64,000 nucleotides of DNA from a virus, in the IMG/VR virus record IMGVR_UViG_3300028840_003749, positions 1 through 64,000 of that record, one strand, 5' to 3'. Every line of letters starts with the position of its first letter. Position 1 is the stretch's first letter. Position numbers and translations under genes: made by a program. This document shows, in pieces, positions 26,779-48,419 of the stretch. The notes beneath the pieces are model-generated. The model did no database searches and had not been told where the DNA came from. It saw nothing but the letters and a program-made list of their open reading frames with translations.

Positions 26779-27626
26779 TTCCTCCTCCTACGCCGACTTC
26801 TTGCAGCCTCCCTCGACGGACTCGCTGCCAGCACCGCTCTGTGGAACCTATCTATGGCTGTGTAAAGCGGAGGAGCTTTCTCCTTCAACTCCCCTTTACG
26901 CATGTTGTACATCTTGAAGGCTTCGGCGAAGTGCTCCCTATTATTCGTCAGCGAGTACAGTGAGATTCTCCACCGGTCATTCCCTCGGCTACCCGCAAAC
27001 AGCCTATGGTCGTGATTAGCCTCGACCACATTTCTCCAAGCATCGACGGCCTTCCTTCTGCCAGCATCCGACCATTGGAGAGCTTCCAAGGTGCCTTCCC
27101 TCGGCACGTTCCAGTGAAGCTCCTCCATCGTATACCAGATGCCATGTCCAAGCTCGTGGTTGTACGTGCCCTCGGACAGATTCATGCCGAACTTGTAGTC
27201 CGCGCTCCCTTTCGGATGGCTAAGTGCGAATTGAAATCCAGAAGCATTAACGTATATGCGCTTCTGTCCACCCATTTCGTGGCTGCTGCCGTAGTATACC
27301 CCTCCAAGGTTCCGAGTCATAACAGGAAGAGCTGTCTCTCTTCTCCTCAACTCACTGTAGAGTGTGTCCGGAGTGCCGAGCACAGTGACGACATCGACGG
27401 AGGCGTTCACCAACTCAGGAGTCCATTTCTTCCTGGACCCCTTGACGAGCCTTTCCATCTGCTTACCGATGGCCTCACATGTCACGTCACCTGTATCGAA
27501 GGTCTCGACTCCGATGCCTGCCGCCGACGCATCCGGACGACCTCCGGATCGAGGGGCTCCTTTTTGCCGCTTGTAAATAACGGCAAACAGGTATGCCAGT
27601 TGCTTCTTGGTCAGCGACTTTCCCAC
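26775..27626 (-). CDS. Leader-tagged zinc metallopeptidase (paralog of 25679-26557)
   Basis: GTG start 1 nt after the upstream TAA gives (V)GKSLTKKQLAYLFAVIYKRQKG. Zinc motif YNHELGHGI, with downstream NNREHFAEAFKMY. The maximal ORF extends to 27677. Confidence 0.6.
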   Translation of the reverse strand: MGKSLTKKQLAYLFAVIYKRQKGAPRSGGRPDASAAGIGVETFDTGDVTCEAIGKQMERLVKGSRKKWTPELVNASVDVVTVLGTPDTLYSELRRRETALPVMTRNLGGVYYGSSHEMGGQKRIYVNASGFQFALSHPKGSADYKFGMNLSEGTYNHELGHGIWYTMEELHWNVPREGTLEALQWSDAGRRKAVDAWRNVVEANHDHRLFAGSRGNDRWRISLYSLTNNREHFAEAFKMYNMRKGELKEKAPPLYTAIDRFHRAVLAASPSREAARSRRRRRK

Positions 27627-27885: not shown

Positions 27886-28293
27886 CTACGGAAACTGTTT
27901 CCGGCGGACGCCCTTCTTCGGAGGATTCACGTACTTAGGACGACGGCGCTTCTTAGACCTGTAGGTCTTGCCGCTCGACTTTGCCATGCGCCGCCACCGC
28001 GAGTACAATGCTTCGGCCTTCTGGACTTCGGCTCGGCTCGGCTTGGACTTCGGGGTCATGCCGTACCCGCCAGCCTTACCTTCTCGCTCAAACCAACCTT
28101 CAGCAACCGGCCTTCGCGTCCGTCGCTGTTCGGCAACAGCAACGCGAGCCATCGTCTTAGCGAGCTTTGCCGAGCGAGTGGCTCCCCTCTTGCCGAAGAC
28201 ATACCTGGAACGATATCCTCTCGCTCGCCTTTTTTCCGACTTCCCTGCCTTCGCAAAGATAGCAGCAAGCTGTGCTCTGCTCAACCGTGCCAT
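27886..28293 (-). CDS. Leader-tagged small basic protein
   Basis: Leader MARLSRAQLAAIFAKAGKSEKRRARG. Lys/Arg-rich throughout. Carries the shared second motif AEVQKAEALYSRWRRMAK. Confidence 0.65.
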   Translation of the reverse strand: MARLSRAQLAAIFAKAGKSEKRRARGYRSRYVFGKRGATRSAKLAKTMARVAVAEQRRTRRPVAEGWFEREGKAGGYGMTPKSKPSRAEVQKAEALYSRWRRMAKSSGKTYRSKKRRRPKYVNPPKKGVRRKQFP

Positions 28294-28294
28294 G

Positions 28295-28711
28295 TCACTT
28301 TCTCCTTTGCTGCTGTCTGGCCGACGACCAATGATGCCTCGTCACTCGCCGAGGCAGACGTTTGGTCTCTTCCACGAAGACCGTATCCCACATCCGCCGT
28401 TTCTTCTTGTCCTTCGGTCGAGTCACGTACTCACCGCGCTGGCGTTTTCTCCGCAGGTCTCGAATGTAGCGCTGCTCAGCCGCTGCCTTCTTGAAGCGGA
28501 TGTCACGAAGGCGGTATGCCACCTCCTTTCCCTTCTTGTACTGAGCAGCCGAGATGCCTTTCTTCCGAGCCTGAGCCTGCGTCATCGGCGACCAGTTGCT
28601 GAGGTGGCTGTAGGCCGACTCCTTCCACTTCTTCCGACCTCCTGGCTTGCCCTCTCCTGCTCTCGCCTTTGCGAAGATAGCAGCAAGCTGTGCTCTGCTC
28701 AACCGTGCCAT
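28295..28711 (-). CDS. Leader-tagged small basic protein
   Basis: Leader MARLSRAQLAAIFAKARAGEGKPGG. The 5' end is identical at DNA level to 27886-28293 over 52 bp. Confidence 0.65.
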   Translation of the reverse strand: MARLSRAQLAAIFAKARAGEGKPGGRKKWKESAYSHLSNWSPMTQAQARKKGISAAQYKKGKEVAYRLRDIRFKKAAAEQRYIRDLRRKRQRGEYVTRPKDKKKRRMWDTVFVEETKRLPRRVTRHHWSSARQQQRRK

Positions 28712-28712
28712 G

Positions 28713-29141
28713 TCACTTTCTCCTTCTGCGCCGTCGAATACCCCTTCTGTGCCGTATCCTCTTCTTTATTTCCGACAAGCTGTCGTACTTCCTCGCTGTA
28801 GTACTCACCTTCCTCATCCGCATGTAGCGCTCAGCAACGGCCTCCCCCTTCTCAGTTTCCGACTGAGTTGGAGCCTTGTAGTTCTTGTAACCGTAGACTC
28901 TATTTCCTGCAACTCCTTTCCAACCTTCCCCTCTTGCCTTCTTGAACATCGCCTTCCGAACGTCCTTACTCCAAGGACTCTTTTTCACAACACGCTTCTT
29001 CTTGGAGTCCCATACTCCTGTGAACTTGCCCGCCTTAGCTCTCAAATGAGCGTCTTTCATGGAACCTTTGAACCGACCCTTTTGAGCCGCTGCTGCTTTT
29101 GCGAAGATAGCAGCAAGTTGCCTCCTGCTCAACCGAGCCAT
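28713..29141 (-). CDS. Leader-tagged small basic protein
   Basis: Leader MARLSRRQLAAIFAKAAAAQKG. Contains ETEKGEAVAERYMRMRK and ends in RRRRRRK. Confidence 0.65.
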   Translation of the reverse strand: MARLSRRQLAAIFAKAAAAQKGRFKGSMKDAHLRAKAGKFTGVWDSKKKRVVKKSPWSKDVRKAMFKKARGEGWKGVAGNRVYGYKNYKAPTQSETEKGEAVAERYMRMRKVSTTARKYDSLSEIKKRIRHRRGIRRRRRRK

Positions 29142-30070
29142 TATGCGGCCTCCTTCCAGAGCTTCGCAATGTCTCCGACATCTCGACCTTCCCTCGTCAG
29201 GAACGTCTCATCCACACCTTTCCTGGCTTCAATCTCATCGTCGGTGTAGAACCGAGCGATGAACGGAGACGCCGTGTGCTTGCACCACGGATGAAATGGA
29301 GGACCACCGTTCGGCAACCTCTCCACCAGCGGAAACCCTGGCGTTGCTCCGGTCAGGCTGAACACCTTTCCTCGATACGCATCACAGAAGTCACCGACCG
29401 TGCTCGGATTCGGAGAAATCACGATGAGGTCATGGTTGTTCTGCCCCGCTCGTATCTTCGTCGCTACCGTGGTCGCTTCGCGCCTCATGTTGTGGCCGAC
29501 CATGCCAGCGTAGTAGTCAAGGTCGAATTGGTACATCCGACCATCATCGCCTTTGACAATAACCTTCCCCATCGCCAGCTTGTCCACCAGCCTGTCGATG
29601 ATGCGGTCCTGAAGCTTCGCTGCACTGAGGCCTTGTATCTCGGCTTTGGCGATCTCTGCTCCCATCTCCTCGGTCCAGAACTTCGGCCTGAGCATGAGCC
29701 TGGACACGTGGTGCCTGAAACCATCGGTCGCTCCGGTCAGGTAATCCTGTGCTCGCTTCACCAGATGCTCGACCGCCAACTCGTTGACCTTCTCGAAACG
29801 AGCGTTGACCAGCAGCTTGCCCTTCTTCAGCATCCGGATACTTGCGAAGTCCTGCGTCCTATACCAGTCCGGAATTGCCTTCTCTGCCCACCACCTGCTG
29901 TATCCGTCAGTCCTGCGAAGGATTTTCCGGATATCCACCAAGAGTCCGCGCGCTCGCTCTCGCCGTGCTACTGCAGGCAGATGGCGTGCCTGACTCAAGA
30001 GCGCACGCGCGGACTCTCGATAGTACTGTGCGAGCATCGCTTCCCAGTCTGCTGTACGTACGGCCATCAC
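29141..30070 (-). CDS. Head morphogenesis protein (SPP1 gp7 / Mu F-like minor capsid protein)
   Basis: C-terminal DFCDAYRGKVFSLTG...LPNGGPPFHPWCKHTASPF matches the MuF/gp7 signature (C..C..GKvfsl...PPlHPnCRCt). Confidence 0.8.
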   Translation of the reverse strand: MMAVRTADWEAMLAQYYRESARALLSQARHLPAVARRERARGLLVDIRKILRRTDGYSRWWAEKAIPDWYRTQDFASIRMLKKGKLLVNARFEKVNELAVEHLVKRAQDYLTGATDGFRHHVSRLMLRPKFWTEEMGAEIAKAEIQGLSAAKLQDRIIDRLVDKLAMGKVIVKGDDGRMYQFDLDYYAGMVGHNMRREATTVATKIRAGQNNHDLIVISPNPSTVGDFCDAYRGKVFSLTGATPGFPLVERLPNGGPPFHPWCKHTASPFIARFYTDDEIEARKGVDETFLTREGRDVGDIAKLWKEAA

Positions 30071-30507
30071 TTCTTCCTACGTTTCTGGACTTCAGCCTTG
30101 ATGCGTTTCAGCCTTACGCGCTCCTGTTGGCGGATGTGGCTATCCATCCGCTTTCCTCCTGGACTATCCCAGTCCAGCCACAAATCCACGTACCGGCCAT
30201 TTGGCAATTTGGCCGTGTAGTTGTCACCGTGCTCCGCGTATCCGCCTTCCCATCCAAGCTGCTCAGCCAGACCATGCAACGTCACATCCACTCGCCGTGG
30301 TTCCAGAAGCAGGTCGAGGTCTTTTCGACGTCCTGCTCCTTTCTCCTTCAGTCCTCCCACGACTCGCATGTTCCATCCGGCGCCGCGCACTTGCTTCCGA
30401 ATGGACCGTACAAATGTCGCAGCGTCGGACCTGCCCCACTTCGCTCGCTCACGACCACTCATCTTCGCAAAGATGGCAGCAAGCTGCTTCCGACTAAGGC
30501 GTGCCAT
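30067..30507 (-). CDS. Leader-tagged minimal Pol-beta-like nucleotidyltransferase
   Basis: Leader MARLSRKQLAAIFAKM. VGGLKEKGAGRRKDLDLLL ... GRYVDLWL resembles the Pol X palm (GS.RRGK..gDiDiLi ... rvDl). Confidence 0.5.
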   Translation of the reverse strand: MARLSRKQLAAIFAKMSGRERAKWGRSDAATFVRSIRKQVRGAGWNMRVVGGLKEKGAGRRKDLDLLLEPRRVDVTLHGLAEQLGWEGGYAEHGDNYTAKLPNGRYVDLWLDWDSPGGKRMDSHIRQQERVRLKRIKAEVQKRRKK

Positions 30508-30509
30508 TG

Positions 30510-30800
30510 CTACTTCCTTTTGCGCTTACGCATCCTCAACCACCGGAGGTACACGGCTCTGCCCTTCTTTGTCTCCTCCGATGAGTAGAACTTCTGCTTG
30601 CTGTTGCGCCAAGCCTTCGACCGAATAGCACCACGGAAGCCCGCTTCGTTGCTCAGCTTCCGAGCCGTCACTCTGGCAGAGCTGTCATCACGTCCTCCCT
30701 GTGAGAGGACGTCGTAGTTGGCCTTAAACCTGCGCTTCTCTGTAGCTCTCGCTTTCGCAAAGATGGCAGCTAACTGTTTCCTGCTGAGCTTAGCCATCAT
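30510..30800 (-). CDS. Leader-tagged small basic protein
   Basis: Leader MMAKLSRKQLAAIFAKARATEKRRFK. Contains EETKKGRAVYLRWLRMRKRKRK. Confidence 0.65.
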   Translation of the reverse strand: MMAKLSRKQLAAIFAKARATEKRRFKANYDVLSQGGRDDSSARVTARKLSNEAGFRGAIRSKAWRNSKQKFYSSEETKKGRAVYLRWLRMRKRKRK

Positions 30801-30958: not shown

Positions 30959-31052
30959 TGCCACGGCCTCCTGGAGCCTTTGCTCCGCCAAACACGGCCA
31001 ACCAGCCGTTTTTCGCCTAAGAACGCACCCTGCGGCACGCCCAACGGCAAAT

Positions 31053-32976: not shown

Positions 32977-33384
32977 CTACTTCCTCCTACTCCGGCTTGC
33001 TCTCGGCTTCCTTCGAGGCTTCGCTCGCGTTCGGACCTTCTTGGCCTTGGCTTCCCGTTCCTTGCGAATCCTCTTCTCGTTCGCCTGCTGCTTTTTCAGA
33101 GCGACGTCATAGTGCTCGTTCACCGCCCGGATGGCAGCAGCCTCAGACAGGAACTGCTTGGTCTTGCCGCGCTTCATGCCGCCGATGCGAGCCGACCAGT
33201 ATCCGCCACCGATCTGCTTAACAGTCCCGAGCGACTGCTTCCTGGCCTTCTTGTTCGCCAAGGTGTACCAGATTGAGTACCGGTCCGCCTTCGACAGATA
33301 CTTCTTGCGAGCAGATCCCTGTCCTTTGATTTTGGCGAAGATGGCAGCCAGCTGCTTTTGCGAAAGTCTCCGCTTCTTAGCCAT
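32977..33384 (-). CDS. Leader-tagged small basic protein
   Basis: Leader MAKKRRLSQKQLAAIFAKIKGQGSARKK; Lys-rich C-terminus. Confidence 0.65.
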   Translation of the reverse strand: MAKKRRLSQKQLAAIFAKIKGQGSARKKYLSKADRYSIWYTLANKKARKQSLGTVKQIGGGYWSARIGGMKRGKTKQFLSEAAAIRAVNEHYDVALKKQQANEKRIRKEREAKAKKVRTRAKPRRKPRASRSRRK

Positions 33385-33811: not shown

Positions 33812-34327
33812 TTACCCCCTTACCAGTCTCGGAGTTCCCAACCATTCGCCGAGTAGCGTCACCGCTTCGTGGCACACACGACGGCCGCCAGAGTACGCAT
33901 ACGACTCGCTCAGCGGTCCGATACCTTCCGATTTGCTGACGACACCCTGCTGCCGCAGTTCCCAGTGCCTTTGCCGTCCTCCGATCCTAAGCAGGTACAA
34001 GGCCTGCTCACATGTTGCATCCTGGACGGCTTTCTCCATCCTCACGTATTCATAACCCGTCAGCGTGCTCACGAGCGATGCGACTGCCTGATCACCTTCG
34101 AGCTGGACCGGCAGCTTGAGTCGCTGAGCAGGATAATATCTTGTCCCTCTGAAGCGCAGTGTGTCGATATCACGAGTAGCTTGAAGAAGAGCACGCTCCT
34201 GCATGTCTACTGACGCCTCCGACCATGCTACCACATCCAGCACGGTCGTCATGTAGCTGTTGGCGCTGGACAGGGAGATGTAGCTGTTAGCCGTAGGACC
34301 GCCAAAACTGGAATCAATTGTCGGCAT
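33812..34327 (-). CDS. Head-tail connector protein (gp6 / SPP1 gp15-like)
   Basis: ANSYISLSSANSYM...WSEASVDMQERALLQATRDIDTLRFRG...QRLKLP fits the connector-family pattern (sY.s..ea..Y...W......AL..AT..id...f.G). Confidence 0.6.
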   Translation of the reverse strand: MPTIDSSFGGPTANSYISLSSANSYMTTVLDVVAWSEASVDMQERALLQATRDIDTLRFRGTRYYPAQRLKLPVQLEGDQAVASLVSTLTGYEYVRMEKAVQDATCEQALYLLRIGGRQRHWELRQQGVVSKSEGIGPLSESYAYSGGRRVCHEAVTLLGEWLGTPRLVRG

Positions 34328-34336: not shown

Positions 34337-34702
34337 TTACGAGAACGCTCTCGTTATCCTGTCCCTCACCTCAATCGTACCGGCAGGTGTCGGTACGATG
34401 TAAATCTTGGTGTTACTTAGCTGGACACGAAAGTCGAACGAATAAATCCCTGCGTCCATGCTCTCCGTGTCCGACGGCACAAGGTACGCCTCCACCAAAC
34501 CTCCGAGAGGACTGGTGATAACACACTGAACAGCGACGGAGGAGATTTTGGTAATGAGGGCATCATCATCAGAATCGTGGACCGACTTCTTCACCATGAA
34601 CCTAACCAGAGCCTCAGTAAGGTTGATGGCAACACTGCTCGTGTCCGTCACCAATGCCCTGATGGTCTTGTCCGTACCTTTGACAACCAGAACGTCAGTC
34701 AC
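34337..34702 (-). CDS. Hypothetical beta-rich virion protein
   Basis: 121 aa. VVKGTDKTIRALVTD...INLTEALVRFMVKK resembles Ig-like/BppU-type N-terminal folds (weak). Confidence 0.5.
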   Translation of the reverse strand: MTDVLVVKGTDKTIRALVTDTSSVAINLTEALVRFMVKKSVHDSDDDALITKISSVAVQCVITSPLGGLVEAYLVPSDTESMDAGIYSFDFRVQLSNTKIYIVPTPAGTIEVRDRITRAFS

Positions 34703-34703
34703 C

Positions 34704-39443: not shown

Positions 39444-40822
39444 TAGAAGGCTACCTTCACCTGAGCGTATCCGTCACATGAGAACGTGCCGCTGAAAGCA
39501 TCCCACATCGTCACGTTATGCCACGTGTCCGCTTCGCAGTTTGCTTCCGTGGTTCCTGTCTTGTACTGCACACTGCTCGGAGCAATGCCGTGTCCGTACT
39601 TGTTGAGCCTCACTCGCGCCGTTCCTGCCCCGAGGTCCACCACAGGAGACGTTGCATATTCTCCGCTGCTCAGAGCGATTGACTCTCCATCTCCAGAGCC
39701 GACGATGGAAGCCGTTCCACTCCAAGTCGAAAGGTCGGCAGTATTCTCCTCCAGCACGCTCGTATCGTGACCCCAAGCCACGGAGCCTGCCAATGAGTCG
39801 TGCAGGTCGTGGTACTTGGTGACGCCAGAGATTGAGCGCCCCGATGTGCCCGAGTTGTAGCTAATCGGGGCGAGATGGTATCTATAGCTGCGGTCGGTGC
39901 CCAACGTAATGCTGGCAGTATTCAGTAGATTCGTGAAGCGCGGGTCTGTCTCGCTATAGAGTTTCCATGTAATAGTCGTGCCGTTCTTGTCGATTTTGTG
40001 GTCATAGGTTGTGCCGAAACCACCCGCGCCAACAGTATACGAATCGCTGTCGGCTCCCTCTTCTTCTCGGATACGCATGTACGCATTGCTCTCTGCCGCA
40101 GACTGCCAGTTGAGATGGATACACTGGCTGTTGTTCGTGTCCCAATAATAAACGTCCTCGACAACATTGGACACAGCGTACAGCGAACCAGAACTGAGGT
40201 AATCGTAGTTGTCTATCTGGGTGCGGAGGTCATGTGCAGCCGCCCCCGTAAAGTCGGTGAAGTGCCCGACGCCGAAGTCTCGGTGGAAGTAGTCATCAAC
40301 GGTTTGCCCCATGCTTGTGATGGTAATCGTGTCGGTAGAGGCGGAGAGGTCGTCTCCCCCGTCCACCTTGGTGTAGTCGTTCTCGAAATCTTGATAGGGG
40401 TCAGGAGCGCTCGTCAGGTCGGAAGTACCCGCGATGACATCGTTACTGTCGAGCGCTGATAGCGCCTGCGCATCCAGAGACGCCAAGACCTCGGGCTTGT
40501 GAATCCGATACCATGTTTCTTCAATCTCGGCATCGGGCTTTATTATCGGGAGTCTCCTCCGCACGGCGGCAAGCATCTGCCCGACAACCTCAAGCTGCGG
40601 ATTCCAGCGGGTCAGTTGCTCCGCGCGAAACTCGGCCAGCAAGAGCTTCTTGTCGATGACCATCTGGCCCCGGACGTTGTGTTCAAGCCGTAGCTTCTCC
40701 AGCAGGCCGACTAAGGCCCGCGCCTTGTCCATGTCGGAGAGAGAGTCATAGCTGGTGCCGAGGCCGAGGGCCACAGTCAGCGCGTCGGTGTCAACGGTGA
40801 TGTTGGACCTATCAACCGCCAT
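39443..40822 (-). CDS. Hypothetical structural protein (coiled-coil N-terminus + beta-rich domains)
   Basis: 459-aa ORF whose stop is coupled to the start of the giant gene. Confidence 0.6.
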   Translation of the reverse strand: MAVDRSNITVDTDALTVALGLGTSYDSLSDMDKARALVGLLEKLRLEHNVRGQMVIDKKLLLAEFRAEQLTRWNPQLEVVGQMLAAVRRRLPIIKPDAEIEETWYRIHKPEVLASLDAQALSALDSNDVIAGTSDLTSAPDPYQDFENDYTKVDGGDDLSASTDTITITSMGQTVDDYFHRDFGVGHFTDFTGAAAHDLRTQIDNYDYLSSGSLYAVSNVVEDVYYWDTNNSQCIHLNWQSAAESNAYMRIREEEGADSDSYTVGAGGFGTTYDHKIDKNGTTITWKLYSETDPRFTNLLNTASITLGTDRSYRYHLAPISYNSGTSGRSISGVTKYHDLHDSLAGSVAWGHDTSVLEENTADLSTWSGTASIVGSGDGESIALSSGEYATSPVVDLGAGTARVRLNKYGHGIAPSSVQYKTGTTEANCEADTWHNVTMWDAFSGTFSCDGYAQVKVAF

Positions 40823-40842
40823 CGCTCAACCCTATCCGGCTC

Positions 40843-41148
40843 TTACGGACCTAACTCCGCTTCCTTCGCTGCCAACTGCTCTGCCTTCACCCTGTCAACG
40901 TCATGCTTGACCTGGAGTCGCACAAACTGGTCCAAGCTCGCGGTCTTATCCAGGTCTGCGTCCAAGCGCAGACCAAGCGTGGAGACCTTGGTGAGGGTGG
41001 CAGTGATGGAGGACGAGTTGGTCTTCTGCATCTCAAAGGTAAAGTTGGCGATGGACTGCTTGATGGAAAGAGCAGTCTGGGCGGCTTTCTCCTCAGAGTA
41101 CGCAGATGATATCCTTGTCCGACATAATGTCCGTGTGTACGTTACCAT
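40843..41148 (-). CDS. Hypothetical helical protein
   Basis: 101-aa ORF. The first 56 nt overlap the upstream ORF, so the start is uncertain. Confidence 0.45.
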   Translation of the reverse strand: MVTYTRTLCRTRISSAYSEEKAAQTALSIKQSIANFTFEMQKTNSSSITATLTKVSTLGLRLDADLDKTASLDQFVRLQVKHDVDRVKAEQLAAKEAELGP

Positions 41149-41395
41149 CGCACGTCAACCTTACAAAGCGCCACGATGCTCCAACCCTCGCGTCGTCGTC
41201 GGCAGGCCAGGAGGTCCAGGTCCAGGCACCTTCTGGCCCGCCGTCGAACTGTCCATCTGGTTCGTAGAGCAGATGTTTGTACTGGTCACTCTGCTCCACC
41301 TCGTCAGGCTCAGGTTCGGGGTCATCTACGTGCGCGTAGTACCTTGTCTCCATCTCAACGAGAGGCACAAGATACAGATGCGTTTCCACGGCCAT
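41093..41395 (-). CDS. Hypothetical acidic protein
   Basis: 100-aa ORF, Asp/Glu/Pro-rich centre. Confidence 0.5.
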   Translation of the reverse strand: MAVETHLYLVPLVEMETRYYAHVDDPEPEPDEVEQSDQYKHLLYEPDGQFDGGPEGAWTWTSWPADDDARVGASWRFVRLTCDGNVHTDIMSDKDIICVL

Positions 41396-41410
41396 GACTC
41401 ACCTCCGCTA

Positions 41411-41950
41411 TTATGCGGATTCCCTCAACCTGATGGTCATGGTGACGTTCAGGTAGTCACCGTCCGTCACCGTCCTGGTCGTACTCAGAGCAGCCGAGGC
41501 AATCAACCATCCTGTCCCGTCATCCGACTGCACGGTCGTCAGGAACAGGTTGTCAACTCCAGGCCAGTCACCACCGGAGGCATTGAACGTGCACACCTTG
41601 GTGACCATTTCGTAATCGGAGGTGCCGCCGTCCTGCTGCACGGTCCAATCATCTGCCGCCTTGACATGGAGCCGCAGATAGTTGTTCCCTGTCGGCTCCG
41701 TCGTAACGCTGGTGATAGTGTCGGCCTCAGTCAATGAGGCTCTGTCATCCAGCCCCAGATACAATGTACTCGGCAAGGTCGTATTGCCAGAGAGAATCTG
41801 GCAGAACAACGCCTCACCTTCATCATGCAAGATGTTGTGAACATCTTCCTGATGCAGCAGCTCTCCCGCTCTTGACCAGTGCTCGACATGCCACCGAGTG
41901 TGCAGACCGAGCTGCGTGTGAGCCGGACGAACCACCTTGTCGCCACTCAT
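41411..41950 (-). CDS. Hypothetical beta-rich protein
   Basis: 179-aa ORF with protein-like composition. Confidence 0.55.
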   Translation of the reverse strand: MSGDKVVRPAHTQLGLHTRWHVEHWSRAGELLHQEDVHNILHDEGEALFCQILSGNTTLPSTLYLGLDDRASLTEADTITSVTTEPTGNNYLRLHVKAADDWTVQQDGGTSDYEMVTKVCTFNASGGDWPGVDNLFLTTVQSDDGTGWLIASAALSTTRTVTDGDYLNVTMTIRLRESA

Positions 41951-42035
41951 GCTCTACTTCCTCCTTCTTCCTCGTCCCGTCTTCCTGGTCTTGGAGCAGC
42001 CTCCACGTCCTCTGTTGGCTCTCACTCCTCGACCA

Positions 42036-42461
42036 CTACCGTCTCGCTTCGGAACGCCTTTTTTCGCCACTTCCAATTCCCCTTATCACCAGTATGCAAT
42101 CATCATCTCTCCTGTACCGGACGCCGCGAGCCACAATGGTCGCGTCCAACAATCGCTCATACAGGAGAGCGTGGCTCAGCTTCGCACAGCACGCTACCGG
42201 CGTCCCCTCCGTCACCTCAAGAGCCTTGCGGACCACCTCGACAATCAACGAAACAACCTGCTCCTTGGTGACCGTCTGGTTCGGACCGAGTATGAATGCT
42301 GGTTCTCCTTCGTTCTCCAACCCTCCTATCACGTGGAATGCTCCGTGCTTCCTGGAGCACTCGTGCTGCCAACACAACGGTAGCAAGCTCCTATCAATGG
42401 CCCTCACTTCAGCCACGGCCTTCACGCCGTTGATTTCTGCTGTCACGCGAATAGGAGTCAC
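42036..42461 (-). CDS. Hypothetical protein
   Basis: 141-aa ORF. Confidence 0.5.
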   Translation of the reverse strand: MTPIRVTAEINGVKAVAEVRAIDRSLLPLCWQHECSRKHGAFHVIGGLENEGEPAFILGPNQTVTKEQVVSLIVEVVRKALEVTEGTPVACCAKLSHALLYERLLDATIVARGVRYRRDDDCILVIRGIGSGEKRRSEARR

Positions 42462-42477
42462 AACGCTTCCCGTCTCC

Positions 42478-42822
42478 TTACAGCACGTAGCCGCTCATGT
42501 TGGCGATGGCGGCTCCGCTGCTTGTCACGGTCAGCGATGGCGTTGTGTTCTGCGTCATGGCCATCGGAGGACTGAAAACGACGTCGAAGATCCCTACCGG
42601 CAGGATCATCTGCCACTTCAACGTCGCTCCGTCCTTCAGCAGAGCCACCTTACCGGCTACGCTCGTGTAGCCTGAAATCTGCGTGATGTGGTGCTCCCTC
42701 GTAGCAACCGCTGCTTGGCTGATGGCAATGGTAGACGTGGCCGAGCCGGTCACGGTCCAGTTATCTTCCATCAGCCCGTTAGCGAGCGCTACACCGTTTT
42801 CGTCTCGGACAGAAACTCCCAT
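42478..42822 (-). CDS. Hypothetical beta-rich protein
   Basis: 114-aa ORF, Thr/Ser/Val/Ala-rich. Confidence 0.5.
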   Translation of the reverse strand: MGVSVRDENGVALANGLMEDNWTVTGSATSTIAISQAAVATREHHITQISGYTSVAGKVALLKDGATLKWQMILPVGIFDVVFSPPMAMTQNTTPSLTVTSSGAAIANMSGYVL

Positions 42823-42838
42823 TCCATCAACCTCCTCT

Positions 42839-43735
42839 TCAACGACCTTTCTTTCTCCTGGTCGACTTCCATTCGGTCAACCTGCGCTGGAGCAGCTCTA
42901 ATCGGTCCGAAATGGTGTATCCAAACTCTCGAGCCTCTTCCTCTCCCATCTTCTTGTCGGCGGCCAAAGCACAGGATACGTAAGACTCAACAACCTCCGA
43001 AGGAACCAACCCGGCAAGCTTGCGTCGAAACGCAGGACTCATCTGCTCAGGCCTCGTATAGCTGGATATGCTATCGGAGCCTGCTCCGTTGTGGTCGATT
43101 GGAATCCCGACCATCTTACTCTCATCAATAAGGATGTTGAAGCCGTGTCGGTCCGAGTTGCCAATGATGAAGTCGAAGGCCTGGATGTCATTCCAATTCT
43201 TCAACTCCCTCTTGTCTCTGTTAGGAACGGCTGCAATTGGCGGCTCGTCCACCCACTGCATCACGATGCCATCGTCGCCTTGGACGTTCATCGGCTCGAC
43301 CGTAGGCATCGGAAGGCCAAGCTCGGTCCCAAGCTCGTACGCGAACAACTCCATGTCCACGTTCTGACTTACGATGACCACCTCGCGTTGTATATGACCA
43401 CGAGCTTCTGCGGGCTTAAAGACAACCTTGTGGATTTTTTCTCCGTCCGAAAGGTCCACAGTAAATGTCCGAGACACGCCTGAGTTAAGTCGTTCGACCA
43501 AGAGCACATCCATCGAAGCGTAGTCTTTCGGACCGCCTACCTTCTTGTACCCTCTGACCGTGACTCGCGGAAGCTCCTTCGCTCCTTCCTGCTTCAACAG
43601 CGACTGGTGAAGCTCTTCCGCAGATTTCGGAGCTTCCGCTTTCGTTCCCCCAGATTTGCCTCCTCCTGCTCGCTTCTTGTCCTTGTAGACAGTCGCAAAC
43701 AGAAAGGCCAGCTGCTTTCTGGTGAGCTTACTCAC
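42839..43735 (-). CDS. Leader-tagged PI3/PI4-kinase-like (atypical kinase) protein
   Basis: Leader MSKLTRKQLAFLFATVYKDKKRAGGG. Kinase motifs HKVVFKP, IVMQWVD, catalytic loop FDFIIGNSDRHGFNILID and IPIDHNG. Confidence 0.65.
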   Translation of the reverse strand: MSKLTRKQLAFLFATVYKDKKRAGGGKSGGTKAEAPKSAEELHQSLLKQEGAKELPRVTVRGYKKVGGPKDYASMDVLLVERLNSGVSRTFTVDLSDGEKIHKVVFKPAEARGHIQREVVIVSQNVDMELFAYELGTELGLPMPTVEPMNVQGDDGIVMQWVDEPPIAAVPNRDKRELKNWNDIQAFDFIIGNSDRHGFNILIDESKMVGIPIDHNGAGSDSISSYTRPEQMSPAFRRKLAGLVPSEVVESYVSCALAADKKMGEEEAREFGYTISDRLELLQRRLTEWKSTRRKKGR

Positions 43736-43738
43736 ACC

Positions 43739-44611
43739 TCAACGCCTTTGTCTTTTTCGCCGAGAGCCTCTCCGAGATCCCCGCTCCTTCTCGTACTGGC
43801 GGATCTCCTTCTGAAGGAGTGGCAAAGCCTCTCCAACCCATTCTCCGGCTATTGTACTGCTCGTTCCTTCCGCCCACTCAGCAGCGTACTCTATTCGCTT
43901 CACTGTATCATCAACATCCAGCGCCAACACGCGCTTCCTGAATTCCGGAGTCAACCTGTTCACCGAGTACCTTTTGGGAGTCCTCCAGCCACACGAGTTG
44001 TGGTCAATCGGAACCACCATCTTCTGCGACACGTCGACCAGATAGTTGCCATCATGCCGGTCCGTGTTTCCGATGATAAAGTCAAATGCCCTCATGTCGT
44101 CGTAATTCTTCAGGCCAACCAACTCGTCATAGCTGCAATCCTCCGCAGCAGGCAGGTCTACCCACTGCATGGCGATTCCTGGCCTGTCCTTTCCTGACAC
44201 CCTAAGCGCTTTTTCTTCTGTGGCAGGAATCGGAAGACCAAGCTTAGTACCGATTTCGTATGCGAATAACTCCAGGTCCGTATCCTGGCTTATCCCCAAC
44301 TCCGAGTTATCCTTTGGCTTGAACAGCACCTTATGAATACGCTCTCCGTCGGAAAGCCGCGTTACGTAAGTTTCGCTCACACCAGAATTCAAAGACTTGG
44401 CCCGGCCGACCTTCTGCATAGAGCCGTAACCTTTTGATCCTCCGGCATCTTTGTAACTCTTGAACGAAACCTCCTTCAGCTTAGAAGCAGGCCCGGCATC
44501 CGGAGTCGCCGAACCTCGCCGTGCTCTCGCGCCTCTCCTCGACCTTCTTTCGGAGGCCATGCGAGCAAACATGGCAGCCAGCTGCTTCTTACTAAGAGGT
44601 CGCCTACTCAT
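43739..44611 (-). CDS. Leader-tagged PI3/PI4-kinase-like protein (paralog)
   Basis: Leader MSRRPLSKKQLAAMFARMASERRSRRG. Kinase motifs HKVLFKP, IAMQWVD, FDFIIGNTDRHDGNYLVD and VPIDHNS. Confidence 0.65.
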   Translation of the reverse strand: MSRRPLSKKQLAAMFARMASERRSRRGARARRGSATPDAGPASKLKEVSFKSYKDAGGSKGYGSMQKVGRAKSLNSGVSETYVTRLSDGERIHKVLFKPKDNSELGISQDTDLELFAYEIGTKLGLPIPATEEKALRVSGKDRPGIAMQWVDLPAAEDCSYDELVGLKNYDDMRAFDFIIGNTDRHDGNYLVDVSQKMVVPIDHNSCGWRTPKRYSVNRLTPEFRKRVLALDVDDTVKRIEYAAEWAEGTSSTIAGEWVGEALPLLQKEIRQYEKERGSRRGSRRKRQRR

Positions 44612-44852
44612 ACCTCGACGCCCTCAACACCATGCCATCGAAGATTTGACACATGCGCCGAAGAAACTCCTCCTTGTCGGACTTCGCCGAGATCGCTTTA
44701 CCTCCCAGGACGTACTTCTCATTCAACACGTGCCGAACCAACTTGGCATCGCCTGTTCCAACAACGCGTCCATTGCGGAAGAAGAACGTGGCAGCAAGCA
44801 CCTGGGGATCCGAATGATCCGGATCGATACGGTAGAGTTTCACCCGCTTCAT
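44604..44852 (-). CDS. Hypothetical small protein
   Basis: 82-aa ORF overlapping the downstream start by 8 nt. Confidence 0.5.
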   Translation of the reverse strand: MKRVKLYRIDPDHSDPQVLAATFFFRNGRVVGTGDAKLVRHVLNEKYVLGGKAISAKSDKEEFLRRMCQIFDGMVLRASRYE

Positions 44853-44882
44853 GTCAAACCTTTCCGGAGCGTTTAGCCGGTC

Positions 44883-45545
44883 TTAACCAGCCGTCCACTC
44901 CCATCTGGTCGGATTCGCAAAGACCATCAGCGAGTTTCCGTTGCCGTCCATCAACACGGTATTGGCCGTCGCATCGTAGCTCGCTCGAATGCTGGAGATT
45001 TCCGAGTCGGCTCCGTTGATGGCTCCCTTCAGAATATCGGCGCTGGAGTTGATCTTGAACGGCAGACCTATCTCGTTGAGATGGCCGATCTGGACTTGGT
45101 CAGACGCCGTCGACGTTCCGCTCGCAATTGACCCTACCACGGTGACCGTAGTCAGTCGCGAGTACGCATACGACGAATACAGCGTGCCTGCTCCTGATGC
45201 GACCGTCATGATGACGGTCTCACTCAGAGCCGAGCCGTTGATGTCAAGACCGGTCAGGTTGAACGTCCATGTACCGGCTGCATCCCCGTCCGCATCCGTG
45301 TCCGAGTAGTTGAACTGGAGCTTCCTCGGAATGTCCGGCTGAGCCATCGAGTCCATCACACCGTTCGTGGTCCCATCATCCACCGCCGTTGTGCTGATGG
45401 CGCTGGTGGAATCGGCGGTCATCTTCGGCACCGAGTAGACCAGCGTACGGCTTAGCAAGTCATCAACATACTCTCCGAGAAAGAACGCATACGGAGAGGG
45501 AACAAGCTCGTCCAGGTAGGATTTCTGTCGCGCAGAAAGAACCAA
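44883..45545 (-). CDS. Capsid-associated protein candidate sharing an N-terminal motif with 45549-45836
   Basis: QKSYLDELVPSPYAFFLGEYVDD followed by a Thr/Ser-rich beta domain. Third gene after the major capsid gene. Confidence 0.55.
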   Translation of the reverse strand: MVLSARQKSYLDELVPSPYAFFLGEYVDDLLSRTLVYSVPKMTADSTSAISTTAVDDGTTNGVMDSMAQPDIPRKLQFNYSDTDADGDAAGTWTFNLTGLDINGSALSETVIMTVASGAGTLYSSYAYSRLTTVTVVGSIASGTSTASDQVQIGHLNEIGLPFKINSSADILKGAINGADSEISSIRASYDATANTVLMDGNGNSLMVFANPTRWEWTAG

Positions 45546-45548
45546 TGG

Positions 45549-45836
45549 TTACTCCTTTTTCTTCTTTGCGGATTTGGCCTTGGTCGCCGCCGGAGCCTCA
45601 GAATCGGCCACGGACTCGTCTTTCGGAGCCTCGTCGCCCCCTGCGGCCTTCCCGGCGGCTACTTCCGCCGCTTTTGGCTTCGCCTTGGCCATCATATTGG
45701 CCACCAGTACCTCCAGGCGCTCCAGCCGTTCATCAATGTCGGCCACGACGTCACCAAGAGGGAAGGCAAACGGAGACGGAACAAGACTATTGAGCGTTTG
45801 CCTCTGAGCGTCGTTCATCACATTTCTTCCGGGCAT
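45549..45836 (-). CDS. Small capsid-associated protein candidate (shared N-terminal motif, Ala/Lys-rich tail)
   Basis: QRQTLNSLVPSPFAFPLGDVVAD, then a helix and a low-complexity tail KAKPKAAEVAAGKAAGG...KKKKE. Confidence 0.55.
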   Translation of the reverse strand: MPGRNVMNDAQRQTLNSLVPSPFAFPLGDVVADIDERLERLEVLVANMMAKAKPKAAEVAAGKAAGGDEAPKDESVADSEAPAATKAKSAKKKKE

Positions 45837-45840
45837 GCTG

Positions 45841-46044
45841 TTAACTCCTACTCACCTTCCTCCGAGCCAGCCTCTTGACGATGCTGTCTCGAGCCTGCCT
45901 CAACTCCTCAGTCCACCGTTCCAGGACGTGAGCCTGAACAGGGTGAGAGTTTACATTGACGCCGGACATCTCGTAGATAACGGCATCAAGCCGTTCAATC
46001 TCGGCATCAGTAACCTTGACCGCCTTCCGCGCTACAGCACTCAC
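45841..46044 (-). CDS. Hypothetical small helical protein
   Basis: 67-aa ORF just downstream of the capsid gene terminator-like hairpin. Confidence 0.5.
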   Translation of the reverse strand: MSAVARKAVKVTDAEIERLDAVIYEMSGVNVNSHPVQAHVLERWTEELRQARDSIVKRLARRKVSRS

Positions 46045-46171: not shown

Positions 46172-47296
46172 TTAACCACTGTAGGCCTTAGCCATTCCTG
46201 CCTCGTTCCGAACCTCAACGGTGTACTCACCGATGATCATGCCCTTCTCGGAGTCACCGGTCCGGCTGACAGGCACGTACCGGAAAGACCGATTCCTCAG
46301 AGGCAGGACACGAATCCTCTGCGAGCTGGTGATGATGAGACTGTTGGCCCGCATCCAGCGGTTCAAGACGACGGTCTGAAGACCGAAGGTGGACTCGTAC
46401 TCCGTCACACGGTTCTTGAATCGCTCTTCGGCGTTCGTCACCCTCGTCCTGGTGCTGTTCCAGGAGTCGATGGTCCGCTTGAAGTTCTTGTCGCAGATGA
46501 TCAGGTCGACATCCGTGCCGCCGTAATCCCATGCGGCCTGGATCACGTTGGCAAGCCAGGACTCCGTCAGCGTCGGACCGATGGACTGGTTGTTCGTGGT
46601 CACGAAGTCCCACAGTCCTTTCATGGTCCGGTACGCCGTCGCCGAACCGAGTGTGTTGCCACTCAGCTTGCCACGGAGCAGAGCGCGCTCAAGATCCCGC
46701 AATGACTCGCGAGTCTTCTTCGCACGCTGATAATCCATCTCGGAGCCGACGCCTCCAAGCTGCCGCACCGCTTCCATCGTTCCGGACACGATGATGTCCT
46801 TCTTGATGATCTGCGTGTAATTCGACAGCCGGACGCGGGGACGAGACGTATCCTGGTTGACGTCGGCGCCTTCCAGTGCAGCATCGGACACCACGTAGAA
46901 CGAGTATCCAGGAGCATAACTGGTTGCCGCCGTGCCTCCCTGCGCTCTGGCGACGGTGATGTAGTTACCGCTCACGGCGGTAACCTGCAACACCTCAGAG
47001 CCGTCACTGTTCTCAATGTAGGCACCGGTCTGCATGTACGCCGCCAGTCCACCCGCAATTTCGATGGAGCTTGCCGCAGTGGTGCTATGACTCAGAGTCG
47101 AGCTGACCAGGGTGTTCGGAGCCAAGTCATCCTCAAGCCATTCGTGAAGCACGTTCTGCGCTTCGTTCACGGCCTGCGGAAGAGCGTTGAGCAGTGGCGT
47201 CTCGTACGGAGCAATCATCGAGATGATGTCACTCACGTCCTCCGCCACACCGTCGAACACACCCGAGTCGTAGATAGCTCGGCCAGTAAACGCCAT
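46172..47296 (-). CDS. Major capsid protein (HK97 fold, SU10/DUF5309-like)
   Basis: N-terminal VAEDVSDIISMIAPYETPLLNALPQAVNEAQNVLHEWLEDDL matches the DUF5309 signature (..sP.dTP....i.....a.n..hEW.eD.L). 374 aa, follows the scaffold gene. Confidence 0.75.
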   Translation of the reverse strand: MAFTGRAIYDSGVFDGVAEDVSDIISMIAPYETPLLNALPQAVNEAQNVLHEWLEDDLAPNTLVSSTLSHSTTAASSIEIAGGLAAYMQTGAYIENSDGSEVLQVTAVSGNYITVARAQGGTAATSYAPGYSFYVVSDAALEGADVNQDTSRPRVRLSNYTQIIKKDIIVSGTMEAVRQLGGVGSEMDYQRAKKTRESLRDLERALLRGKLSGNTLGSATAYRTMKGLWDFVTTNNQSIGPTLTESWLANVIQAAWDYGGTDVDLIICDKNFKRTIDSWNSTRTRVTNAEERFKNRVTEYESTFGLQTVVLNRWMRANSLIITSSQRIRVLPLRNRSFRYVPVSRTGDSEKGMIIGEYTVEVRNEAGMAKAYSG

Positions 47297-48256: not shown

Positions 48257-48419
48257 GTACCTCCACGGCGAGAACAGCAATTTCCAGTAAAGCATTCCAA
48301 CCACTCCTATCCGGCCTTTGCAGGCTCGTACCCTCATTCAGAGGTAGGTACTACTTGATTCCCTCAGCCTGTATCCTTCATGGCAGCGGCGTCGTGCCTG
48401 AAGCTGAGTCTCCAGACCG

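Follow-up and report, generated by a model that had tools for sequence, protein, structure and literature searches.

INTRODUCTION

In MuF polymorphic toxins and phage polyvalent proteins, an enzymatic effector goes with a MuF minor head protein and is presumed to be capsid borne (Jamet et al. 2017, PMC5576092; Iyer et al. 2017, PMC5512222). HExxH peptidases and kinases occur among the domains of polyvalent proteins (PMC5512222); the MuF toxin paper (PMC5576092) does not bring up kinases in its main text. A second point of comparison is the capsid-targeting sequence of phage T4, with the internal proteins IPI-III and Alt (reviewed in PMC3012670 and PMC9026906). Literature searches on PI3K/PI4K-like virion kinases of phages turned up nothing specific. 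T7 gp0.7 and HipA provide functional precedents for a phage or toxin kinase that reprograms host proteins; gp0.7 is synthesized early, once the DNA has been injected, and does not belong to the virion.

Here we describe two kinase genes, K1 and K2, in a 64,000-nucleotide stretch of viral DNA (the window, meaning the whole stretch that was analyzed). The source phage is known from metagenome contigs only. As in MuF toxins, the K1/K2 family is found as the C-terminal passenger of MuF domains (10 of 68 homologs), and the genome has a MuF-like gene. Unlike MuF toxins, K1 and K2 themselves have no MuF domain: they are a free-standing, leader-tagged tandem pair whose genes lie some 13 kb away from that of the MuF-like protein. 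The likeness to T4 is that a short N-terminal peptide is common to unrelated late proteins, both small basic proteins and enzymes; co-injection with the DNA would likewise be expected. The differences are that the leader has, by inspection, no sequence similarity to the T4 peptide and that the capsid is of the SU10/DUF5309 type. In addition, a scan of window proteins revealed no prohead protease family (the contig, 94.7 kb in all, continues for about 30 kb beyond the window), and no conserved cleavage motif was found after the leader among its copies, so the analogy is incomplete. On balance, we think that K1 and K2 are probably unfused capsid cargo kinases that are loaded by their leaders and injected into the host.

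RESULTS

Tandem kinase genes in an accessory block

K1 and K2 lie in tandem on the minus strand, separated by 3 nt (Table 1), and BLASTP aligned their products with 40% identity over 244 residues (E = 2e-53). An earlier note on this DNA had placed two tandem paralogs at 42839 to 44611, about 1.5 kb downstream of the major capsid gene; both ORFs were found at exactly these limits, with 1,561 bp between the capsid gene and the K2 start. K2 overlaps the 82-aa ORF upstream of it by 8 nt. The K2 protein is made up of a leader, a disordered basic linker (residues 32 to 67), a kinase core (approximately residues 65 to 250), a long C-terminal helix, and a polybasic tail. The core is minimal in both proteins, about 190 residues. 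A scan for promoters and terminators from 40.5 to 48.5 kb gave no signal above that of shuffled controls.

The two genes are part of an 11.8-kb block (34.3 to 46.2 kb) that runs from the capsid gene to the head-tail adaptor gene, Ad1. In the related phages (52 to 58% capsid identity), both the kinase and the leader are absent from the stretches recovered, and in the three whose recovered DNA extends past the capsid gene on its downstream side (L009, L010, and L012) the capsid gene adjoins the adaptor gene. Because Ad1 directly follows the capsid gene in these related phages, we regard the block as accessory. The earlier description of the kinases as lying inside the head module is correct in that they are between the capsid and head-tail adaptor genes, but what surrounds them is an extra block inserted, relative to the related phages, between genes that are adjacent there.

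The same genome encodes a DSP-type phosphatase (53443 to 54027), and its structural region also encodes a 1036-aa glycosyltransferase-methyltransferase and a nucleotide pyrophosphatase/phosphodiesterase. The scaffold gene is at 47339 to 48337 and the portal gene at 48420 to 49946. As to the taxonomy of the phage lineage, the sole clue is a contig from a Mariprofundaceae MAG.

TABLE 1 Features of the window discussed in the text, with positions, strand, and the basis of each assignment
Feature	Position	Strand	Basis
Leader-tagged 361-aa protein, no recognizable family	23663..24748	-	Leader pattern
Leader-tagged 291-aa HExxH (HEVGH) protein, putative zinc metallopeptidase	25679..26554	-	30% identical to 26775..27626, E = 3e-21
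Leader-tagged 283-aa HExxH (HELGH) protein	26775..27626	-	Weak anthrax-lethal-factor-like and M90 matches, below threshold
Three consecutive tagged, very basic proteins (135, 138, and 142 aa; pI 11.7-11.9)	27886..29141	-	
MuF-like minor head protein, untagged, signature PNGGPPFHPWCKH	29141..30070	-	phrog_4611 "minor head protein," E = 9e-18; weak Pfam Phage_min_cap2
Two tagged small basic proteins (146 and 95 aa)	30067..30797	-	
Tagged small basic protein (135 aa; pI 11.7)	32977..33384	-	
Head-tail adaptor Ad1	33812..34327	-	phrog_477, E = 1e-16; synteny with L009, L010, L012
K1, 298-aa paralog of K2 with K2-like layout	42839..43735	-	GTG-start ORF; BLASTP, PHROG
K1 C-terminal polybasic tail RRLTEWKSTRRKKGR	42842..42886	-	K/R in 8 of the 15 final residues
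K1 catalytic loop FDFIIGNSDRHGFN	43136..43177	-	D188, N193, D195, R196, H197, N200
K1 leader LTRKQLAFLFAT, residues 4-15	43691..43726	-	A[FY]LFA[TV]VY subtype, common to the 361-aa and the two HExxH proteins
K2, 290-aa PI4K-II/Fam20-like kinase	43739..44611	-	ATG-start ORF; Pfam, PHROG, AF2, Foldseek
K2 C-terminal polybasic Ser/Arg-rich tail ERGSRRGSRRKRQRR	43742..43786	-	K/R in 9 of the 15 final residues
K2 PIDHN, DFG equivalent, with metal-binding D203	43997..44011	-	D203 invariant in A3; aligns with IDNGLAFP of PI4K type II-alpha
K2 catalytic loop FDFIIGNTDRHDGN	44045..44086	-	D177, N182, D184, R185, H186, N189 (near-)invariant in A3
K2 leader LSKKQLAAMFAR, residues 6-17	44561..44596	-	AAIFAK subtype, common to the small basic proteins
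Major capsid protein, SU10/DUF5309 type	46172..47296	-	phrog_1328, E = 1e-74; Pfam SU10_MCP

Kinase fold and active site

The Pfam model PF00454 (PI3_PI4_kinase) recognized K2 with 29.4 bits against a cutoff of 27.1, over residues 172 to 219 only, and precomputed Pfam annotation marks K2 as "weak"; K1 alone scored 19.7 bits, below threshold. For both proteins the Pfam matches are confined to the catalytic-loop region. The family phrog_3162 matched K2 (E = 1e-10) and K1 (E = 9e-10), and a search of PDB sequences with K1 alone gave only marginal matches, to Fam20. A family profile built from 40 sequences (A3) matched PI4K type II-alpha, its best match to any solved structure, with an E value of 1.9e-15 in an alignment that spans the glycine loop to IDNGLAFP. 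The same profile matched Fam20 kinases, including Fam20B xylosylkinase, with E values of about 1e-13 to 1e-15.

The AF2 model of K2 had a pLDDT of 82.4 and a pTM of 0.73. When this model was compared with the PDB by Foldseek, a check that the earlier note had proposed, the best 50 of the 96 matches with E ≤ 0.001 were all kinases, and Vps34, PI4KII-beta, DNA-PK, CotH, CtkA, and PknB were among the kinases matched. TM-scores to PDB kinases were modest (0.35 to 0.48), and the best-superposing matches were to PI4K type II-beta (TM, 0.46; rmsd, about 5 Å). NCBIfam profiles gave nothing useful for K1 or K2, and PADLOC returned weak PDC-M03A matches at the catalytic loop only, with no defense-system context. 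Matches of both proteins to Pfam HipA_2 were weak and below threshold; HipA itself differs in that it has N-terminal domains of its own and pairs with HipB.

All of the motifs on which the earlier note had based a PI3K/PI4K-like fold are present: the Lys strand (IHKVVFKP/IHKVLFKP), the hinge (MQWVD in K1 and K2), the catalytic loop (FDFIIGNSDRHGFN in K1 and FDFIIGNTDRHDGN in K2), and the metal site (PIDHNG/PIDHNS). The fold is borne out by Pfam (for K2), by the family profile, and by AF2 with Foldseek. Across A3, K2 residues E114, D177, D184, N189, and D203 are invariant, and G77, K98, N182, R185, and H186 are nearly so. K1 keeps all of the K2 catalytic residues, with K107, E129, D195-R-H...N200, and D214 corresponding to K98, E114, D184-R-H...N189, and D203 of K2. 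Thus, both proteins are atypical protein-kinase-like enzymes and, to judge from these residues, are apparently active.

Like PI4K-II, Fam20, and CotH, the phage proteins have a glycine loop, an FKP lysine, a helix-C glutamate, a GNxDRHxxN loop, and an (I/L)D(H/N)G metal site. Their core is much smaller than that of any of the three. It lacks the palmitoylation or membrane insert of PI4K-II, the N-terminal segment and disulfides of Fam20, and the extensions of CotH; what it carries in their place is a viral leader and a viral tail. On sequence and model grounds, the family is placed between the type II PI 4-kinases and the Fam20/CotH kinases. No lipid-, membrane-, or head-group-binding insert was recognizable in the core of the AF2 model of K2. 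We see no support for a lipid substrate, which we consider unlikely; protein and sugar kinases stand beside PI4K-II among the closest relatives.

A leader common to 11 proteins

The earlier note had claimed that both kinases carry a leader tag, and the leader occurs much more often than chance would allow. Its pattern, [RK]Q[LIVM]A.[LIMV]FA, is present nine times in the six-frame translation of the window, compared to about 0.01 chance matches expected per ∼128,000 translated residues (an estimate from residue frequencies). All nine occurrences are on the minus strand and no more than about 10 residues from an ORF start; two further copies read AQLAAIFAK. The 11 ORFs that carry the leader (two kinases, two HExxH proteins, one protein without a family, and six protamine-like proteins) are all located in the region bounded by the capsid gene on one side and the tail genes on the other; in all of them the leader starts at residue 3 to 7. 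It is about 12 residues long, with the consensus [LF]-[ST]-basic-basic-Q-[LI]-[AI]-[AFY]-[ILM]-[FI]-[AL], and in the AF2 model of K2 it is part of a helix (residues 8 to 30).

K1 and K2 have leaders of different subtypes, and each subtype is common to unrelated passengers, so the leader acts like a module in its own right, whatever the passenger domain. The N terminus of K1, for example, is 72% identical over 25 aa to that of the 361-aa protein. Codons vary synonymously within the leader copies; the leader is therefore conserved as protein, and we rejected the idea that it is a DNA-level regulatory element. A Sec or Tat signal was rejected as well. In such signals the basic region is followed by a hydrophobic core at least about 10 residues long and, in the case of Tat, contains an invariant twin arginine, whereas the leader has a hydrophobic patch of about 6 residues (LAAIFA) followed by charged residues, and its basic pair is variable (RK, KK, RA, RR, or QK). 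Nor is the leader a strongly amphipathic helix, its hydrophobic moment being only 0.02 to 0.28. In IMG/VR, the matches to two back-translated leader patterns were all internal and of the kind expected by chance. A related leader, M(A/P)R(L/F)SRKQIIAIILKKK, is present on three kinase homologs from other metagenomes that are 25 to 30% identical to K1/K2.

K/R-rich C-terminal tails are found in 10 of the 11 tagged proteins, some of them Ser/Arg-rich (RGSRRGSRRKR and RASRSRRK are examples). The six small tagged proteins are 95 to 146 aa long, with pI values of 10.9 to 11.9. No sequence relatives in the PDB were found for the 361-aa protein or for one of the HExxH proteins. For the HELGH protein, the GTG start at 27626 was inferred from the leader; the start of the longest ORF is at 27677.

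Distant homologs are fused to head proteins

By the searches made here, the kinase family is rare and sparse. A tblastn search of GenBank phages with K2 gave no match, and one with P0023, a typical family member, gave a sole, weak match, to a "kinase" of Myxococcus phage Mx1. In a word-indexed collection of 5.8 billion proteins, K2 found only itself and K1, and the 40-sequence profile found at least nine matches. No relative of the kinases was found in IMG/VR.

PF00454 was passed by 10 of 10 distant homologs sampled and by 65 of 68 in a larger sample. We took a census of fusions among these 68 distant kinase homologs, which are 400 to 1200 aa long. Domains of head-internal proteins were present in 13 (Phage_Mu_F in 10 and Phage_min_cap2, Phage_portal, and Peptidase_S78_2 in 1 each), and a PT-HINT polymorphic-toxin domain was present in 1. 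The MuF signature HPxC[RK][CH] lies N-terminal of the kinase in P0033, P0045, P0066, P0072, P0075, and P0076. In P0045, residues 12 to 336 match the MuF-like minor head protein of the window (E = 1e-27; 29% identity), and residues 374 to 515 match K2 (E = 2e-14); judged by these alignments, P0045 is a Rosetta-stone fusion of a homolog of that protein with a kinase. The top structural matches in BFVD were phage proteins with names referring to head morphogenesis, portal, and ADP-ribosyltransferase fusion.

The repeated fusion of distant homologs to MuF, minor-capsid-2, portal, and prohead-protease domains, together with P0045, is independent evidence that strengthens the idea, put forward in the earlier note, that the kinases may be injected. 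These fusions indicate how the family is used and do not by themselves make the unfused K1 and K2 packaged proteins. The same note had called the duplicated, tagged arrangement near the capsid gene unusual for a phage; a kinase of this family beside head genes is less unusual than that, the family being recurrently head-associated in phages.

DISCUSSION

In many other phages, the family serves as a deliverable effector domain, attached covalently behind the C terminus of a head-internal anchor, and in some bacteria it is joined to a polymorphic-toxin HINT module. Here the kinases are separate, and, if they are capsid cargo, as we favor, the covalent link would be replaced by the ∼12-residue leader plus the disordered basic linker. 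The leader would dock the tagged proteins inside the assembling procapsid via the MuF-like protein (our proposed cargo anchor or partner), the portal, or the scaffold, and the polybasic C-terminal tails would bind the packaged DNA. The tagged set would then exit the capsid together with the genome. The kinases would become active only upon contact with the ATP of the host cytoplasm; early in infection, their targets would be host proteins and possibly also the basic proteins injected with them. A point against the cargo reading is that some 13 kb separates the K1 and K2 genes from the MuF-like gene and the main tagged cluster. That the leader is a portable, noncovalent capsid-loading signal is plausible, if somewhat short of probable; if it is, the phage injects two kinases, two metallopeptidases, one further enzyme, and six protamine-like proteins without MuF fusion. 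In the boldest version, which we think quite improbable, the first kinase substrates are the Ser/Arg-rich polybasic tails, and host ATP triggers the shedding of the genome's protein coat, much as when protamines or the hepatitis B core tail are phosphorylated.

The kinases could instead act late in the cytoplasm of the producer cell, unpackaged, phosphorylating phage structural or basic proteins or late host factors, with the leader as an oligomerization or regulatory element. The genes lie among late structural genes, CotH, a kinase of structural (spore-coat) proteins, is among the structural matches, the Ser/Arg-rich tails of several tagged proteins could be substrates, and the phage also has a gene for a DSP-type phosphatase. 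This explanation is unlikely, since it accounts neither for the fusions of homologs to MuF, portal, minor-capsid, and prohead-protease domains nor for the leader on protamine-like proteins, which are typically of the capsid-internal kind. Virion delivery is common to our reading and to one in which the kinases are toxins of the polymorphic-toxin or superinfection-exclusion type directed at competing cells or phages, with a neighboring ORF (82, 114, or 141 aa, at 44604 to 44852, 42478 to 42822, and 42036 to 42461, respectively) as the immunity protein or inhibitor. In the homolog P0025, a Pretoxin-HINT domain immediately precedes the kinase, MuF fusions are treated as polymorphic toxins in the literature (PMC5576092), and the small flanking ORFs have no assigned function. 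None of these neighbors matches a known immunity family, however, and they are not kept beside the tagged kinase homologs in L006 and L007, so we rate the toxin explanation as decidedly unlikely.

Two further alternatives concern the substrate. As small-molecule kinases acting on sugars, nucleotides, or antibiotic-like compounds, K1 and K2 might modify virion glycans; Fam20B xylosylkinase is among the profile matches, and the glycosyltransferase-methyltransferase and the nucleotide pyrophosphatase/phosphodiesterase are encoded in the structural region. Because the glycosyltransferase is conserved in relatives that have no kinases, the two are not coupled, and the fusion partners of the homologs point to delivered effectors rather than to biosynthesis; a small-molecule role is very unlikely. 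The earlier note raised the option of lipid kinases; acting on phosphoinositides or on other lipids, they would remodel the membrane of the host. This would fit PI4K type II-alpha and II-beta as the best profile and Foldseek matches, respectively. But Fam20 protein and sugar kinases score equally well, and the minimal core has no recognizable membrane- or head-group-binding insert. Most bacteria are not known to contain phosphatidylinositol, and the sole hint of lineage is the Mariprofundaceae contig. We hold the lipid explanation to be highly improbable.

If K1 and K2 are indeed leader-loaded cargo, the effectors that phages deliver from the capsid would include an uncharacterized family of PI4K-II/Fam20-like kinases, and a short common leader could stand in for a covalent MuF fusion. 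The leader would then provide a small, naturally occurring tag with which foreign proteins could be loaded into phage capsids. Because the module is absent from the relatives recovered, it would also be a clean case of the gain of accessory cargo in a structural operon. Together, the tandem kinases, the DSP phosphatase, and the Ser/Arg-rich co-cargo would suggest a phosphorylation circuit that operates in the first moments of infection.

K1 and K2 genes in the head gene block

The minus strand carries all large ORFs in the window, and the GC skew is negative over the full length. The interval 42839-44611, which an earlier note had assigned to two tandem proteins, contains exactly two ORFs, K1 and K2. 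They are separated by 3 nt, GAGG directly precedes the start codon of each, and their products are paralogs (40% identity over 244 residues; E 2e-53). The capsid gene lies 1,561 bp upstream of the K2 start, close to the 1.5 kb that the note had given. Because the ~94.7-kb contig carrying the window is present in several public assemblies, it is not a one-off assembly artifact. Immediately downstream of the capsid gene, two neighboring ORFs (220 and 95 aa) have a common N-terminal motif, (S/T)(Y/L)(L/N)(D/S)(E/L)VPSP(Y/F)AF, distinct from the kinase leader; neither gave a family match.

Features of the window. aa, amino acids.
Feature	Position	Strand	Remarks
1036-aa glycosyltransferase-methyltransferase	20560-23670	minus	Two glycosyltransferase regions, one methyltransferase region
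Leader-tagged 361-aa protein	23663-24748	minus	Family not recognized
Leader-tagged HExxH protein, paralog 1 of 2	25679-26554	minus	
Leader-tagged HExxH protein, paralog 2 of 2	26775-27626	minus	
Six leader-tagged small proteins	27886-28293, 28295-28711, 28713-29141, 30067-30507, 30510-30797, 32977-33384	minus	95-146 aa
MuF-like minor head protein	29141-30070		Untagged; phrog_4611, E 9e-18
Type I phosphodiesterase/nucleotide pyrophosphatase	31053-32171	minus	Untagged, 372 aa; Pfam 30.2 bits (cutoff 23); within tagged-gene cluster
Homolog of 113-aa protein	32271-32627		
Head-tail adaptor	33812-34327		
1579-aa repeat protein	34704-39443	minus	Between capsid and adaptor genes
K1	42839-43735	minus	GTG start, 298 aa
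K2	43739-44611	minus	ATG start, 290 aa
220-aa ORF	44883-45545	minus	
95-aa ORF	45549-45836	minus	
Major capsid protein	46172-47296	minus	Upstream of kinases; phrog_1328, E 1e-74; Pfam SU10_MCP
Scaffold-like acidic, coiled protein	47339-48337	minus	Head gene upstream of kinases
Portal	48420-49946	minus	Head gene upstream of kinases
Large terminase	49972-51519	minus	Head gene upstream of kinases
DSP/PTP-type phosphatase	53443-54027	minus	Upstream of terminase genes; PTP-NADK 35.3 bits, Tc-R-P "polymorphic toxin system DSP-PTPase" 34.9 bits, above Pfam cutoffs

Kinase fold and active site

The motifs quoted in the earlier note, IHKV(V/L)FKP, MQWVD, FDFIIGN(S/T)DRH..N, and PIDHN(G/S), are found in K1 and K2 alike. 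K2 matched the Pfam PI3_PI4_kinase model above the gathering cutoff (29.4 versus 27.1 bits) and K1 below it; matches to the HipA_2, Fam20C, and actin-fragmin-kinase models were weaker, and all single-sequence Pfam matches centered on the catalytic loop. Both proteins matched phrog_3162, a phage family of unknown function (E ~1e-10). Relatives found by an exhaustive profile search of 1.84 billion representatives numbered only 273 at E ≤ 1e-3, of which 15 reached E ≤ 1e-10; the family is sparse, with K1 and K2 as outliers within it.

In alignment A3, which combines K1 and K2 with 38 short relatives (K2 numbering), E114, D177, D184, N189, and D203 are invariant, and G77, K98, N182, R185, and H186 are nearly so. 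The conserved positions are those of the glycine loop, the ATP lysine, the helix-C glutamate, the GNxDRHxxN catalytic loop, and the metal-binding aspartate. K1 retains the full set (G86, K107, E129, D188, N193, D195, R196, H197, N200, and D214), and both paralogs look catalytically competent. Among PDB sequences, the family profile matched PI4K type II-alpha (E 1.9e-15, the alignment spanning the glycine loop to IDNGLAFP), the Fam20 kinases (~1e-13 to 1e-15), and SMG1, Vps34, DNA-PK, and mTOR (1e-4 to 5e-3).

AlphaFold2 reached a pLDDT of 38 with the two paralogs alone as input and a pLDDT of 82.4 (pTM 0.73) with A3. In the latter model, residues 8-30 form an N-terminal helix, 32-67 a basic linker that is disordered, ~68-250 a compact core of two lobes, and 252-289 a long helix at the C terminus. 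A Foldseek comparison of the model with the PDB returned kinases for all 50 of the matches listed, of 96 with E ≤ 0.001 (TM 0.35-0.48); they include Vps34, PI4KII-beta, DNA-PK, ATR, PknB, CotH, and CtkA. Because the Pfam (K2), profile, conservation, and structural evidence agree, the PI3/PI4-kinase-like fold read from the sequence is supported. We are confident that K1 and K2 have a kinase fold and active site; they belong to the PI3K/PI4K-like kinase superfamily, close to PI4K-II and Fam20.

Homologs fused to head proteins

The best Foldseek matches in BFVD were large phage proteins that include a PI3K/PI4K-like domain; they are named "Phage head morphogenesis domain," "Phage portal protein, HK97," and "ADP-ribosyltransferase" (Mycobacterium phage Onyinye). 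Tailed viruses of haloarchaea also gave matches, to stand-alone "PI3K/PI4K catalytic domain" proteins. When 68 distant homologs of 400 to 1200 aa were scanned with Pfam, 65 had PF00454 and 10 had Phage_Mu_F. Phage_min_cap2, Phage_portal, Peptidase_S78_2 (XkdF-type prohead protease), Pretoxin-HINT, Zeta_toxin, an inorganic pyrophosphatase domain, and a 2'-5' RNA ligase domain occurred once each. The MuF signature HPxC[RK][CH], where seen, was N-terminal to the kinase.

One homolog, P0045 (620 aa), is a Rosetta-stone fusion of a minor head protein and a kinase. Its residues 12-336 match the window's minor head protein (29% identity; E 1e-27), including the signature PNGG(P/T)PFHP(W/R)CKH, and residues 374-515 match K2 (30% identity; E 2e-14). 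From these fusions, the kinase domain has repeatedly been a passenger on head-internal phage proteins and is at least once the toxin module of a polymorphic toxin.

Several other homologs (P0003, P0006, P0007, P0009, P0010, P0061, and P0063, among others) are giant proteins with 2 to 5 kinase-domain copies each. In several giant homologs a short motif, H-x(1-3)-DQK-x-H or G(G/P)xGSG, is repeated along the chain (in P0006 at residues 20, 178, 441, and 696), and stand-alone homologs often begin with motifs of this kind or with "NPYHD..GRF." These motifs may be alternative leader, linker, or processing signals.

Leader and basic tails

The leader is present on 11 minus-strand ORFs of the window, including both kinases, as the earlier note had said of the pair. 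Its consensus, [LF]-[ST]-[RKQ]-[KAR]-Q-[LI]-[AI]-[AFY]-[ILM]-[FI]-[AL]-[KTVR], starts at residues 3 to 7, and the Gln is invariant. The codons vary synonymously among copies, so constraint acts on the peptide. One subtype, LT(K/R)KQLA(F/Y)LFA(T/V)(V/I)Y, is found on K1, the 361-aa protein, and the HExxH proteins, and another, LS(R/K/Q)xQLAA(I/M)FA(K/R), on K2 and the small proteins; that the paralogs differ in subtype, each common to unrelated passengers, is as expected of a transferable module. A related leader, M(A/P)R(L/F)SRKQIIAIILKKK, begins three kinase homologs from groundwater and other metagenomes (P0036, P0073, and P0102), and since these are only 25 to 30% identical to K1/K2, the leader-kinase combination is old.

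A Sec or Tat signal was rejected because the leader has no hydrophobic core and its basic pair is variable; a strongly amphipathic helix was also ruled out. Ten of the 11 tagged proteins have K/R-rich C-terminal tails, in which basic residues fill 5 to 11 of the final 15 positions. The six small ones are protamine-like (pI 10.9-11.9; net charge, +18 to +37).

At metagenome locus L007 (1-570), a partial HEYAH ORF ends at the start codon of a leader-tagged kinase homolog; its similarity to the window's HExxH proteins is weak (E 0.005-0.03). At L006 (1345-1677), a 110-aa HELTH protein is downstream of such a homolog.

Accessory blocks in a structural operon

The tagged genes all fall within the interval from the capsid gene to the tail-side genes, and six of them directly flank the MuF-like gene. 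A related capsid gene is present at nine metagenome loci, with 52 to 58% identity in six. In three (L012, L009, and L010), the capsid and head-tail adaptor genes are adjacent or separated by no more than a single small ORF; downstream of the adaptor come a 113-aa protein and then a ~1000-aa homolog of the 1036-aa protein. No kinase or leader was found in these three loci; therefore, two blocks are accessory additions in the window phage's lineage. One is the 11.8 kb between capsid and adaptor (34337-46044), with K1, K2, a 459-aa protein, and the 1579-aa repeat protein; the tagged-gene/MuF cluster of 8.5 kb (23663-32171, plus 32977-33384) is the second. The kinases and tagged cargo set are thus lineage-specific insertions in a conserved structural operon.

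The 1036-aa gene, itself within the structural block, is kept in relatives (38% identity in L012). The 1579-aa protein has dozens of short "(T/V)EEVGV"-type repeats and three longer ones containing "SDGLH(T/S)W(D/E)E"; in the DNA itself, a single short tandem array (period 66) was detected. It may be a head fiber or decoration protein. In genome collections, a related capsid gene (52% identity) was found on one contig only (L017, JAUZQU010000124.1); that contig is in a Mariprofundaceae (Zetaproteobacteria) MAG bin, which hints weakly at the host range of the wider group of phages.

Proposed role and comparison with known systems

The explanation that we find best, and modestly favor, is that K1 and K2 are an unfused, leader-tagged, duplicated kinase cargo in an 11-member tagged set. 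It draws on the two intact kinases, on the repeated tethering of their family to proteins inside phage heads, on the peptide-level leader that 11 late proteins share, on the polybasic tails, and on the MuF-like protein, a homolog of which is fused elsewhere to this kinase. The leader would dock tagged proteins in the procapsid, standing in for a covalent MuF link; the basic tails would ride on packaged DNA; the set would be ejected together with the genome; and the kinases would act once they meet ATP in the host. The earlier observation is confirmed and its interpretation largely supported; packaging and injection of the kinases we infer.

By substrate, the closest solved relatives include a lipid kinase (PI4K-II), protein kinases (Fam20C, CotH, CtkA, and PIKKs), and a sugar kinase (Fam20B). 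Protein substrates are favored for K1/K2 because the fusion partners are typical of protein-modifying effectors and because most bacteria lack phosphatidylinositol. Speculatively, the Ser/Arg-rich co-cargo tails, e.g., RGSRRGSRRKR on K2 itself, are candidate substrates, and the phage's DSP-type phosphatase might oppose the kinases.

The K1/K2 system would work like MuF polymorphic toxins and polyvalent proteins (PMC5576092, PMC5512222), but it falls outside the MuF-fusion class because fusion was tested and is absent from K1/K2. The tagged set would likewise resemble the internal proteins of T4 with their capsid-targeting sequence (PMC3012670); it is not classed as T4-like because the leader by inspection has no sequence similarity to the T4 peptide and because neither a protease, among the window proteins scanned, nor a conserved cleavage site was found. 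A kinase clade described in polyvalent proteins (PMC5512222) has traits that are in part similar: a conserved Gln in the last N-lobe strand, comparable by description to the MQW of K1/K2, but also an insert between the catalytic His and Asp that is not seen in K1/K2. Our literature search turned up no account of a PI3K/PI4K-like kinase that is cargo of a phage virion.
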